Origin: Escherichia coli
GTDB taxonomy: Bacteria > Pseudomonadota > Gammaproteobacteria > Enterobacterales > Enterobacteriaceae
Reading direction: 5' to 3' (one strand)
DNA length: 1,227 nt
Assembly: GCF_003334815.1 (NCBI RefSeq)
Contig: NZ_QOWO01000103.1
Every line of letters starts with the position of its first letter. The first letter of the stretch is position 1. Both the position numbers and the translations under genes were made by a program. Below, piece by piece: positions 1 through 1,227 of this stretch. A model generated the notes under the pieces. That model worked only from the letters and a program-made list of their open reading frames with translations, did no database searches and was not told the origin of the DNA.

Positions 1-1038
1 CGCGTCGTAACGCGTCATCAGTTCGTTCAGGCGTTCTTCTTCCGCCTCCGTCAGCACCGCTTCCGGCTCCGGCAGACTGCGGTATGTTCCGGCATCCTCA
101 CGGCACTCACCGACAGGCTCCATGCGTCCGGCGCACCATTCCCAGCCTTCGGCTTCCCGAAGGTGTTCAGCGACAGCCTGGAGTTTTTCCAGCAGGGCAG
201 CATCGAGCGCAACACAGTCCACATAGCCACCCTCGTCGTCGCTGAACAAATCGGTGCGCAGTTCATCTGGCGAGAAGGCATCAGCCCCCACAAAGCGGAA
301 TTTAGTGTTCCCCGCCACCGCCACTTCACTTTCGGTCACCAGACGACGAATGGTCTGTACATCCGGTTTTCCGCCCCATCCCGACTGGCAGGCGGCTTCA
401 AACACCTGCACCTGACGCGCGGTGTCGTTCTCCAGCGCCAGCGCCTGACAGTGCTCTGTGGTGATGCGGTCTTCTGCCAGCGCATCGAGGATGACAGGCG
501 CAAGGTCTGCCAGTTTCAGCATTCGCTGAACGTGGCGGGGCGAATAGCCCAGCAAATCACCGATTTGTGCAGGCGTTTTGCCTTCCTGCGCCATCGCACG
601 GAATCCGGCAATCTGTTCGGCAGGGTGCATATCCCGACGATGACCGTTTTCAGTCATTGATGCGGCAGTCGCCAGCTCCTGCGGAATAACCTTCACGCGT
701 ACAGGCCAGTCAGCCGGAATGATGCCACGCTCTGCCAGCATGTTGAGTGCAGCCAGTCGGCGACCACCTGCGGCGACACCGTAACGGTCACCAGGCAGGG
801 TATGCACGACCAGATTCTGCAGCAGTCCGACGCCCTTAATGGACTCCGCCAGTTCGCTGACGGACTCCGCAGAATACGGCACCGTGCGCACATTCAGCGG
901 TGATTTAATCAGCGAGGCCAGCGGCACGCTCACTTCCTCCGTCTGCGCCAGCAGGGCAGACAGGACAGTTTCCTGCGTTTTTACAGATTTACGGCTTGCT
1001 TTGCGGGTGGTTTCTGGTTCACACTTCGTTACAGGCAT
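1..1038 (-). CDS. ParB-like nuclease-domain protein (ParB/Srx N-terminal domain plus HTH), N-terminal 346 codons; 3' end runs off the window
   Basis: Hand translation of the reverse complement in the frame whose codons occupy + positions 1-3, 4-6, and so on. That + frame has no TTA, CTA or TCA triplet from 1 to 1131, so the minus frame is open from the in-frame stop at 1134..1132 down to the window edge. The first in-frame ATGs are at 1044..1042 and 1038..1036. An AAGGGG Shine-Dalgarno at 1050..1045 sits 6 nt before the ATG at 1038 and directly abuts the ATG at 1044, so 1038 is preferred. The protein has a GGRRLAA motif (residues 91-97, nt 748..768) resembling ParB box II GERRxRA, preceded by LLQNLVVH, and an HTH-like segment TPAQIGDLLGYSPRHVQRMLKL (about nt 511..576). 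The family assignment is from memory of ParB-family motifs, not a database search. Confidence 0.85.
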   Translation of the reverse strand, partial: MPVTKCEPETTRKASRKSVKTQETVLSALLAQTEEVSVPLASLIKSPLNVRTVPYSAESVSELAESIKGVGLLQNLVVHTLPGDRYGVAAGGRRLAALNMLAERGIIPADWPVRVKVIPQELATAASMTENGHRRDMHPAEQIAGFRAMAQEGKTPAQIGDLLGYSPRHVQRMLKLADLAPVILDALAEDRITTEHCQALALENDTARQVQVFEAACQSGWGGKPDVQTIRRLVTESEVAVAGNTKFRFVGADAFSPDELRTDLFSDDEGGYVDCVALDAALLEKLQAVAEHLREAEGWEWCAGRMEPVGECREDAGTYRSLPEPEAVLTEAEEERLNELMTRYDA

Positions 1039-1044
1039 AATCAT

Positions 1045-1050
1045 CCCCTT
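1045..1050 (-). promoter_or_regulatory. Shine-Dalgarno (AAGGGG) for the ParB-like CDS
   Basis: The minus strand reads 5'-AAGGGG-ATGATT-ATG; the purine-rich hexamer lies 6 nt upstream of the ATG at 1038..1036. Confidence 0.5.
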
Positions 1051-1066
1051 ATAATTGCTTATGTCC

Positions 1067-1090
1067 TGCCGGACGTTCGCGCGTCCGGCA
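1067..1090. repeat. Perfect 9-bp inverted repeat TGCCGGACG-N6-CGTCCGGCA (potential stem-loop or operator) in the intergenic spacer
   Basis: Base-by-base check: + 1067-1075 (tgccggacg) is the exact reverse complement of + 1082-1090 (cgtccggca), with a 6-nt spacer ttcgcg. It lies 6 nt after the DUF905-like stop and about 16 nt before the SD of the ParB-like gene. No U/T tract follows it on either strand. Confidence 0.6.
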
Positions 1091-1096
1091 CCTCTC

Positions 1097-1227
1097 TTAC
1101 TTAAGAATCCCGAAATCCCTGATGTACTGGTTCATCCAGTACCCGGCACCGTCCTCAAAATTCCAGGAGCGCCAGATCAACGTGCCATCCTGACGGACAA
1201 CCAGGCGAAAATGCGTTCCCTGATCAT
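1097..1227 (-). CDS. Small DUF905/UPF0401-like protein, C-terminal 42 codons plus stop; 5' end lies outside the window
   Basis: The minus-strand frame with codons at 1225..1223 and onward translates to [42 protein letters not shown], then a TAA stop (+ strand 1097..1099). This resembles my recollection of the E. coli YkfF C-terminus (..DDQGSHFRLVVRD..WRAWNFE..NRYIR..GI..). It is co-directional with, and 58 nt upstream of, the ParB-like start. Only a partial sequence is visible and the family recall is from memory. Confidence 0.6.

Follow-up and report, generated by a model that had tools for sequence, protein, structure and literature searches.

Related systems and identity of the gene

The leading region of a conjugative plasmid is the DNA that enters the recipient first in conjugation. 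KorB of RK2, one of the proteins with which the product described here can be compared, works together with KorA at operator sites of its own plasmid. The closest described system is a leading-region gene of the F plasmid, yfjB (YubM; ParB2 of pED208), recently renamed herB, and functional work on the leading region and HerB is available (PMC9849209, PMC8406263, PMC12672017, PMC13370423). The statements on HerB function come from an un-reviewed preprint and concern the F copy, not the allele analysed here. F HerB is reported to be synthesised transiently, right after plasmid entry, from single-strand promoters (PMC9849209, PMC13370423). It is described as a CTP-dependent DNA clamp-like dimer that is found on many regions of the host chromosome and rewires host transcription, so lowering the cost of plasmid acquisition (PMC13370423). 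Neither a parS-like consensus nor ChIP enrichment on plasmid F was reported, and HerB is reported to act on the host chromosome (PMC13370423), in contrast to KorB. Focus formation by the F protein requires R94 and also R168, R172 and K175, a phenotype has been reported for E130A, residues 1–23 are unresolved in the crystal structure, and dimerisation is assigned to a novel C-terminal module, D4 (PMC13370423).

We analysed a stretch of 1,227 nt from Escherichia coli (the window), which ends before D4. Many conjugative plasmids of enterobacteria match it at 100%, in agreement with the enterobacterial host that had been assumed in an earlier note on this DNA; those identical copies that have been typed have an IncI-gamma/K1 backbone and not, as in F, an IncF one. 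The minus strand of 1–1038 is a single open frame of 346 codons, read from an ATG at 1038–1036 that is also the start annotated for herB in identical plasmid records, where the CDS is called ParB/RepB/Spo0J family. Its product is 92.5% identical to YfjB of plasmid F over 346 aa, and the product of the full gene from an identical plasmid aligns with it over 652 aa without gaps, at 93.6% identity. This frame is thus the 5' half of herB, a known gene that is conserved in the leading region of F-like and I-complex enterobacterial plasmids (Table 1). The only other in-frame ATG, at 1044–1042, is an unlikely start because it overlaps the Shine-Dalgarno sequence. An upstream start giving a 682-aa product was rejected, as a start codon is absent from the window where the 682-aa forms begin.

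Table 1. Features of the window (1,227 nt), in order of position.
Feature	Position	Strand	Remarks
herB (yfjB / parB2 / YubM), codons 1–346 of 652	1–1038	minus	cut by left window end
Domain D3, first part (residues 238–346 of 238–417), acidic	1–327	minus	
Domain D2, residues 137–235, ParB helix-turn-helix, DNA-binding	334–630	minus	Pfam PF17762
Recognition-helix residues R168, R172, K175 of the helix-turn-helix	514–537	minus	all present in window copy
Domain D1, residues 24–136, ParB N-terminal, sulfiredoxin-fold nucleotide (CTP) binding	631–969	minus	
Box III, M128-T-E-N-G132, E130 for Mg2+ coordination	643–657	minus	identical to F HerB
Box II, G91-G-R-R-L-A-A97, arginine patch, phosphate binding	748–768	minus	identical to F HerB
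Codons 1–23, flexible, poorly conserved N-terminal extension, low-GC start zone	970–1038	minus	
yfjA-herB intergenic spacer, 58 nt	1039–1096	minus	limits are annotated CDS ends
Shine-Dalgarno sequence AAGGGGA	1044–1050	minus	5 nt upstream of ATG 1038 (6 nt from last G)
GC-rich hairpin, 8-bp stem GCCGGACG/CGTCCGGC, 6-nt loop, no U-tract	1068–1089	minus	
yfjA 3' end (DUF905 family, 77 aa), stop codon 1097–1099	1097–1227	minus	cut by right window end; basis: frame translation, DUF905 annotation in identical records, phrog_8779 match

The HerB protein

Of the four-domain architecture (D1–D4), the window encodes D1, D2 and 109 residues of D3. ParB_N (PF02195) is matched with E 3e-7 and HTH_ParB (PF17762) over residues 136–222 with E 5.9e-8, and TIGR00180 reaches 66 bits, above its cutoff of 58.45. 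Both nucleotide-binding motifs are present, GxxRxxA (GGRRLAA, 91–97) and ENxxR (E130-N131-x-x-R134), and the functional residues R94, E130, R168, R172 and K175 are all at the same positions as in the F protein, from which the helix-turn-helix stretch 156–178 also does not differ. In a set of 96 diverse family members G91, R94 and N131 are invariant, and E130 is found in 94. The N-terminal extension is different in character: 10 of residues 1–23 differ from F HerB, and in the model the block-mean pLDDT is 45–56 over residues 1–20 and 84 over residues 21–30. The gene has a dN/dS of 0.14–0.23.

For the full-length gene from identical plasmids, phrog_7783 covers residues 37–644 and a confident model (pLDDT 91.5) was obtained over 652 residues. 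In this respect the modelled protein of these plasmids resembles F HerB, sharing a confident fold over 652 residues, a ParB-like N-terminal third and a C-terminal part without a solved relative, in addition to a common synteny and identical Box II, Box III and helix-turn-helix. Structural matches are restricted to ParB, KorB and Srx proteins and to the N-terminal third; neither a Pfam family nor a solved relative was found for domain D3.

With the canonical CTP-dependent clamps ParB, Spo0J and Noc, HerB shares the ParB_N and HTH_ParB domains, the GxxR arginine patch and ENxxR, and both sequence and fold match the structures 1vz0, 6sdk, 7bnk, 6t1f and 7nfu. Several features set it apart from them. 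It carries GGRR instead of GERR, with a Glu at position 92 in only 10 of the 96 family members, and the product has 652 aa as compared to about 280–350 aa in canonical ParB, its ~420 C-terminal residues being unrelated; searches of Pfam, of PDB sequences and of folds gave nothing that resembles a ParB C-terminal domain from residue ~236 onward. Also, a ParA gene is not adjacent. The neighbours of herB are DUF905/yfjA and psiB, and the plasmid's partition genes (ParM, MipZ-like) are located ~10 kb away. KorB of RK2 has an identity of only 19–21% and a different C-terminal part. A PADLOC search returned two marginal PD-Lambda-5_A matches (E ~0.005) at residues 53–116, which correspond to the generic ParB_N domain and are no evidence of a defence function.

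Base composition of the gene

The part of herB in the window has 59.7% GC (620 of 1038 nt; GC1 71.4, GC2 45.7, GC3 62.1), which is in excess of the 49.1% of the plasmid (binomial p 9e-12). Whole herB has 58.6% GC, while its plasmid has 49.1% and E. coli ~51%, so that a whole-gene GC close to the replicon average, named in the earlier note as the observation that speaks against its reading, was not seen. Among the 111 CDS of the plasmid herB ranks 6th in GC, and 2nd among the 53 genes of at least 600 nt; only 3.7% of 1038-nt plasmid windows have at least 59.7% GC. The host baseline is a single 50-kb sample of K-12, with 51.2% GC overall and 51.9 +/- 3.0% for its CDS, against which herB has a z of 2.2.

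The claim that the gene is compositionally atypical holds for total GC, which is ~7–9 points above host and replicon, but not for codon usage. The GC3 of herB (0.63) is well above that of the plasmid CDS (0.49) and only 1.2 SD above that of host genes, 5 of 46 of which are higher; its CAI is 0.449, above the mean of ordinary K-12 genes (0.391). A "foreign" codon signature is thus absent. GC1 (0.67–0.71) supplies much of the excess over host genes, as the protein is rich in Ala (12.6%), Leu and Glu.

The leading region as a GC-rich block

Plasmid windows of at least 58% GC fall nearly all into one block, at 21–33 kb. This is the leading region, ~12–14 kb with ~20 genes, nearly every one of which has 54–64% GC and a GC3 of 0.53–0.68. 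The neighbours of herB are no exception (ssb 59.5%, psiB 54.5%, psiA 56.0%, methylase 57.6%). GC3 is 0.62 in leading genes and 0.47 in the rest of the plasmid (p 7e-9). High GC extends to block spacers without annotation (55–68%) and to the non-coding repeats that lie where Frpo has been described in the literature (63–65%). The leading block has 58.1% GC as compared to 47.6% for the rest in Plm (I-complex), and 56.9% as compared to 47.0% in F, while in the Salmonella IncFII plasmid pSG4021 it has 57.6% and the tra block next to it 52.9%. In four F-type contexts the leading region exceeds the adjacent tra block by 5.0, 4.7, 2.8 and 1.4 points, and in an AT-rich lineage the excess has nearly gone (41.2% vs 39.8%). 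We found no statement in the searched literature that the leading region is GC-richer than the remainder of the plasmid or its tra block. The GC excess is a property of the leading-region module and not an anomaly of herB alone.

The leading block resembles GC-deviant genomic islands in being contiguous and ~10 GC points off the rest of its replicon. It is unlike them in being a core module of the plasmid, and its codon usage is nearer to that of the host than is the rest of the plasmid. In the annotated plasmid context, herB is bordered by neither an IS element nor an integrase or tRNA. Among the features by which compositional islands are recognised, herB thus shows a deviating GC content, and neither an atypical codon usage or GC3 nor a gene-bounded anomaly with flanking mobility signatures. 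Of the horizontal acquisition proposed in the earlier note, what stands is that this is mobile DNA, carried by conjugative plasmids and subject to exchange as a module; the anomaly, however, comprises a region of ~14 kb and not the gene.

The spacer and the translation start zone

The earlier note had also contrasted the gene with an "AT-richer intergenic spacer", based on hand counts of G+C in three 60-nt stretches. These counts are exact (37/60 at 1–60, 37/60 at 481–540, 28/60 at 1021–1080), but the differences between them are not significant (Fisher p 0.14), and the spacer has 55.2% GC, not significantly different from the value of the ORF (p 0.50). Two unlike parts make up the spacer, 29 nt with 34.5% GC, which include the Shine-Dalgarno sequence, and the 22-nt hairpin with 81.8% GC. 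The hairpin begins 7 nt past the yfjA stop codon; its stem is identical to that in F and its loop is different. Folding of the RNA from 1030–1105 gave -22.5 kcal/mol (z -2.26). A promoter and terminator scan of the window returned no minus-strand terminator and did not call this hairpin.

There is a real dip in GC at 970–1067 (p ~0.02 vs the rest), which consists of the ribosome-binding segment and the first 23 codons, the latter with 46.4% GC and a GC3 of 0.39 as compared to 0.64 for the remainder (p 0.025). Such dips are common on this plasmid, where gene starts (-30 to +45) have 44.7% GC and gene bodies 49.5% (85 genes, p 1.5e-8). The dip near 1021–1080 is an ordinary AT-rich translation-start zone beside a GC-rich inter-cistronic hairpin.

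Two further candidates in the window were dismissed. A promoter-like site on the plus strand (1028–1055), antisense to both genes, is treated as a chance match because one such site was found where 0.4 would be expected, and the sole match in an Rfam scan of the window, to RsmY, is also due to chance (14.4 bits with a gathering threshold of 57, E 0.82).

Distribution and evolution

The gene is common: among 5,426 E. coli genomes that are complete, 3,359 (about 60%) have it, and plasmids account for 4,676 of its 4,736 locations. At 90% or more, the window has matches in over 5,000 plasmid records. A word-index protein search returned only copies of 90–99% identity, and a tblastn search over plasmids, swamped by the more than 5,000 close copies, had one divergent record among its matches; the divergent relatives considered here came from a representative search.

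The order ssb-yfjA-herB-psiB-psiA places herB between ssb/yfjA and psiB, and the arrangement ssb-DUF905-ParB-like-psiB-psiA-...-ardA-...-nikA (NC_019097.1) is found in F likewise. A ParB-like gene followed by psiB is still present in relatives of 35–56% protein identity. Twelve close copies from IncF, IncI1/B/O, IncK2/Z, IncI-gamma/K1 and Klebsiella IncFIB/HI1B plasmids all have 58.0–59.3% GC, and their gene tree is incongruent with replicon type, so that the module moves between backbones. A 71%-identical Salmonella copy is located in a leading region of like composition, and a GC3 of 0.63–0.67 has been retained in these two lineages, which are separated by dS ~1.1. More distant members of the family, with synteny kept, adopt the GC of their own replicon (gene/contig GC of 41.3/40.8, 53.6/52.8, 54.3/55.3 and 57.1/53.7). 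In all relatives GC1 is the highest of the three codon positions; it is still 0.52 in the AT-rich orthologue with 41.3% GC, whose product shares the architecture of HerB.

Tree-based parsimony on the 12 close copies gave 155 S-to-W and 105 W-to-S changes (p 0.002), implying an equilibrium GC3 of 0.58 as compared to the current 0.67; this result is ambiguous, because the universal AT bias of mutation and the bias of parsimony itself have the same sign. Polarisation with the Salmonella copy as outgroup (60 S-to-W, 35 W-to-S) was rejected as uninformative, because at dS ~1.1 a randomised outgroup with a GC3 of 0.67 gives that same ratio.

Origin of the GC excess

We favour an explanation that combines the identity of the gene as herB, a GC-rich module at the level of the block and an ordinary dip at the start zone, and consider it very probably correct. 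Part of the herB excess comes from the composition of the protein (GC1) and part from a block-wide surplus of G/C-ending codons (GC3 ~0.63). As to the cause of the high GC of the block, for which no donor lineage was identified, we infer that the block is probably a compositionally distinct recombining module with a history of its own, swapped between plasmid backbones. On this reading the GC of herB reflects neither a recent import of the single gene nor codon adaptation. Retention of GC3 across dS ~1.1 is not what a recent import, not yet ameliorated, predicts, and is compatible with selection or with a long stay in hosts of higher GC.

A recent import of herB alone from a GC-rich donor into a replicon of ~50% GC is extremely unlikely and is contradicted by the present data. 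Its distance from the plasmid average and its rank among the longer genes are as such an import would have it, but ssb, psiB, psiA and the methylase gene are equally GC-rich, relatives with as little as 35% protein identity still have a ParB-like gene followed by psiB, the Salmonella copy is of like composition, and elements that could have mediated an import do not adjoin the gene. Hardly more credible is that GC is set only by the codons for Ala, Gly, Arg, Glu, Val and Asp which the fold requires. The high GC1, its first rank among codon positions in every relative and the Ala content fit such an artefact; GC3, which is largely free of this constraint, is nevertheless raised relative to the plasmid CDS, unannotated spacers of the block share the high GC, and the 41.3% GC orthologue has the same architecture. 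Immediate translation in a naive host could also have selected for host-preferred codons and thereby raised GC3, as the CAI of leading genes (0.413) exceeds that of the rest of the plasmid (0.315, p 2e-6) as well as that of ordinary K-12 genes. We judge this codon-adaptation account highly improbable and reject it on the codon-ending and CAI data: the reference set of ribosomal and elongation-factor genes has a GC3 of only 0.50 and prefers T/C endings, while the herB surplus is in G-ending codons (0.371 vs 0.23 in the ribosomal-gene reference), and the CAI of herB is far below that of the highly expressed ompA (0.81). The better CAI may just reflect a GC3 that is nearer to that of the host (0.55) than is the GC3 of the AT-rich backbone.

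Selection for GC may also act on the region as a whole, be it through entry as ssDNA, stable hairpin (Frpo-type) promoters, late synthesis of the complementary strand and a need for immediate expression, where high GC would stabilise single-strand structure, or through escape from the silencing that affects AT-rich DNA. We consider this unlikely, and it is equally doubtful that the composition of herB is, as would follow, a by-product and not a trace of ancestry. The repeats at the Frpo positions, GC-richer than the coding sequence (~57%), the higher GC of the leading region than of the adjacent tra block in all 4 F-type contexts and the retention of GC3 over dS ~1.1 are in its favour. Yet the excess is almost lost in the AT-rich lineage, the synonymous changes among close copies are net S-to-W, towards the equilibrium GC3 given above, and the contexts amount to only four or five and are non-independent.

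Implications

As herB is a known gene of a uniformly GC-rich leading region, the GC signal, although genuine, is ordinary and has its explanation already. A deviation in GC on a plasmid marks here a functional module that is conserved, and does not mark a gene of recent acquisition. What the current study adds is small: the leading block is sharply GC-richer than the whole of the remaining plasmid in F and Plm, and it is GC-richer than the tra block in the Salmonella IncFII plasmid. The gene is of current interest, and the work on its function is independent of the compositional observation; herB is reported to aid the establishment of incoming resistance plasmids via reprogramming of the host (PMC13370423).

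Identity of the locus

The minus strand of positions 1-1038 is a single open frame of 346 codons, which starts with the ATG at 1038-1036 and continues past the left edge of the window. Many enterobacterial plasmids carry the DNA of the window at 100% identity, and more than 5,000 plasmid records match it at 90% identity or above. It is present in 3,359 of the 5,426 complete genomes of E. coli, with 4,676 of the 4,736 matching places on plasmids. The 60 chromosomal places are presumably integrated F-type plasmids; one of them (NZ_CP018801.1, 3407288-3408504, in a laboratory tolC- strain) is F-like and 90% identical.

The gene order in NC_019097.1, a 98.8-kb IncI-gamma/K1 plasmid, is ssb - DUF905 - ParB-like - psiB - psiA - ... 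- ardA - ... - nikA/oriT, and the locus is the plasmid leading region. The F plasmid possesses the same arrangement, its first three genes being named ssbF, yfjA and yfjB (PMC9849209), while yfjB has an orthologue in pED208 under the name parB2 (PMC8406263) and YfjB has been renamed HerB in a preprint of July 2026 (PMC13370423). Both the gene and the region are already known. The protein encoded in the window shares 92.5% identity with YfjB of F, and pairwise dN/dS values of 0.14-0.23 indicate purifying selection on herB.

Features of the window, of the HerB protein and of the leading region of plasmid NC_019097.1 (L002)
Feature	Location	Strand	Basis or remark
First 346 codons of the 652-codon 'ParB/RepB/Spo0J family' gene (herB)	window 1-1038	minus	NC_019097.1 annotation
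Spacer, 58 nt	window 1039-1096		NC_019097.1 annotation
Last 43 codons of the DUF905 gene (yfjA)			NC_019097.1 annotation
Hairpin, 8-bp stem, 6-nt loop	window 1068-1089	minus	no U-tract
Sigma-70-like site	window 1028-1055	plus	GTTACA, 16 nt, TATAAT; 10/12 matches
ParB_N domain	HerB residues 41-131		domain match
HTH_ParB domain	HerB residues 136-222		domain match
Repeat pair, 300 nt, 97%	L002 24679-24978 / 31627-31926		upstream of two antirestriction genes (klcA-like, ardA)
Repeat pair, ~500 nt, 85-98% identity	L002 26302-26798 / 32646-33139		upstream of ssb and of the gene at 33193

A GC-rich leading region

An earlier note on this DNA had contrasted a GC-rich coding sequence with an AT-richer spacer and considered the gene, if the host was an enterobacterium of roughly 50% GC, atypical in composition and consistent with horizontal acquisition. 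The full herB gene has 58.6% GC (GC3 0.628) and its part in the window 59.7% (GC1 71.4, GC2 45.7, GC3 62.1), which is not close to the 49.1% of the replicon NC_019097.1 (49.2 +/- 6.5% for its 111 annotated CDS), so that the compositional observation stands. herB ranks 6th among these 111 CDS and 2nd among the 53 genes of at least 600 nt. Against the host baseline, one 50-kb K-12 chromosomal sample (51.2% GC; CDS 51.9 +/- 3.0%; GC3 0.553 +/- 0.063), it deviates by z = 2.2 for GC and by only 1.2 for GC3.

herB is not an isolated GC outlier. Nearly all genes between 21 and 35 kb of the plasmid have 54-64% GC (GC3 0.53-0.68), and the leading block has 58.1% GC vs 47.6% for the remainder of NC_019097.1 (leading vs other plasmid genes, p about 7e-9 for GC and for GC3). 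Corresponding values are 56.9% vs 47.0% in F, where tra alone has 51.9%. In an IncFII plasmid from Salmonella, whose herB DNA is only 71% identical, the block has 57.6% GC and the neighbouring tra genes have 52.9%. Of the proposed horizontal acquisition, mobile and compositionally distinct DNA is borne out, but not an anomaly of the single gene beside a meaningfully AT-rich spacer. At block level the expectation of AT-richer non-coding DNA is even reversed, with 63.4% GC in non-coding and 56.7% in coding sequence. Four large unannotated gaps in the leading region (63-65% GC) are two repeat pairs, and the placement of the ~500-nt pair fits the published arrangement of the single-strand promoters Frpo2/Frpo1.

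The gene start and the spacer

The hand counts behind the supposed spacer contrast (37/60, 37/60 and 28/60 G+C) are exact, but show no significant difference among themselves (Fisher p 0.14), and the true spacer, at 55.2% GC, is indistinguishable from the ORF (p 0.50); the coding sequence is significantly GC-rich, the contrast is not significant. The spacer is composite, with 29 nt of 34.5% GC that hold the Shine-Dalgarno sequence AAGGGGA, and the 22-nt hairpin of 81.8% GC. The real GC dip lies at 970-1067, comprising the ribosome-binding segment and the first 23 codons (46.4% GC, GC3 0.39; p about 0.02). Gene starts on this plasmid generally show the same dip, with 44.7% GC in the zone from -30 to +45 vs 49.5% in gene bodies (85 genes; p 1.5e-8).

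The hairpin begins 7 nt past the yfjA stop codon. Its stem is the same in F while the loop differs (CGCGAA vs GGAACG) and the spacer downstream diverges, which suggests that a structure is conserved in the inter-cistronic RNA between yfjA and herB, or in the single strand that is transferred. The sigma-70-like site, antisense to herB and yfjA and overlapping the herB start, is probably due to chance, as one was found where 0.4 would be expected from shuffled sequences. Many database entries list a form of 678 or 682 aa that starts about 30 codons upstream, within the 3' end of yfjA, and spans the hairpin. Window 1039-1131 has no start codon where these longer forms begin (TSTSGISGF... vs MPSVISGF... 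in the entries; protein P0011), so that the gene calls behind them, in other alleles, look over-extended.

The HerB protein

HerB scores above the TIGR00180 cutoff, phmmer finds structures of Spo0J, ParB and Noc as matches, and AlphaFold2 models the full-length protein with confidence throughout (pLDDT 91.5). The family is large, with 1,261 representative clusters at E <= 1e-30, of which many span the full length. Across an alignment of 96 members, G91, R94 and N131 never vary and E130 hardly does. Position 92 (window 763-765) is Gly in 61 and Glu in only 10 sequences, so that the canonical ParB motif GERR corresponds to GGRR. The Glu of GERR is implicated in CTP hydrolysis by Caulobacter ParB, and HerB-family proteins may therefore hydrolyse CTP differently or slowly. 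The protein encoded at L002:27745-29700 has a full-length match to phrog_7783, of unknown function (residues 37-644, E 1e-255), showing that phages or phage-plasmids, too, have HerB-type proteins, in line with a report of a few phage homologues (PMC13370423).

These sequence and structure results agree with the preprint, which describes a D1-D2 crystal structure with bound CTPgammaS, and D4 as a novel dimerisation core of a V-shaped, clamp-like dimer (PMC13370423). Foci require R94, E130 and R168/R172/K175 (PMC13370423), all of which the window copy has. ChIP-seq of HerB gave 156 regions on the host chromosome but neither a parS-like motif nor binding to F; hundreds of host genes change in expression, and plasmid acquisition becomes less costly (PMC13370423). 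Expression is early and transient, from the single-strand promoter Frpo2 (PMC9849209, PMC12672017). Cre-ParB2 is translocated by the T4SS, and deletion of parB2 had no effect on transfer or the SOS response (PMC8406263). The mechanism that would apply to the window copy is taken from these papers. Base composition is not discussed in PMC13370423.

Origin of the composition

Protein composition contributes to the high GC, with a GC1 of 0.67-0.71 and many Ala, Leu and Glu residues, but it cannot account for a GC3 of 0.63, nor for spacers of 55-68% GC. Codon adaptation was considered as well: with 28 ribosomal-protein and elongation-factor genes as reference, the CAI is 0.449 for herB and averages 0.413 for the leading genes of NC_019097.1, against 0.315 for the 91 remaining genes of the plasmid (p 2e-6) and 0.391 for ordinary K-12 genes, which the leading genes slightly exceed. 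However, the reference set has a GC3 of only 0.50, the excess in herB concerns G-ending codons (0.37 vs 0.23), and ompA, which is truly highly expressed, reaches 0.81; adaptation is therefore not the source of the herB GC3. If anything, the AT-rich backbone looks more 'foreign' to E. coli than the leading block does. High GC as an intrinsic property of the family was rejected, since in relatives of 35-56% identity, which retain the ParB-like -> psiB synteny beside F-type tra genes, the GC follows that of their own contigs (41.3/40.8, 53.6/52.8, 54.3/55.3 and 57.1/53.7).

A further alternative is a recent import that is still ameliorating. A tree-based count over 12 close copies gave 155 S->W vs 105 W->S changes (p 0.002), with an implied equilibrium GC3 of 0.58 vs the current 0.67, and this fits a slow decay towards host composition; AT-biased mutation among recent variants and parsimony bias would, however, equally produce it, so that the count is ambiguous. 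GC3 is 0.63-0.67 in lineages about 1.1 apart in dS, so the GC-rich state is old. A polarisation of synonymous changes with a Salmonella outgroup was discarded, as saturation alone gives the observed ratio.

The 12 close copies (L014-L023, Plm, i.e. NC_019097.1, and F) derive from IncF, IncI1/B/O, IncK2/Z, IncI-gamma/K1 and Klebsiella IncFIB/HI1B plasmids, and their GC content lies at 58.0-59.3% throughout. The herB tree of these copies is not ordered by replicon type: the IncK2/Z copy clusters with the IncF copies, the Klebsiella copy with that of IncI-gamma/K1, and the most distant one is IncI1/B/O. This pattern fits, and points to, an exchange of the leading-region module among plasmid backbones. 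On the best reading, the leading region is a module that differs in composition, has a history of its own and would recombine between plasmids, and the GC content of herB would be that of the module as a whole.
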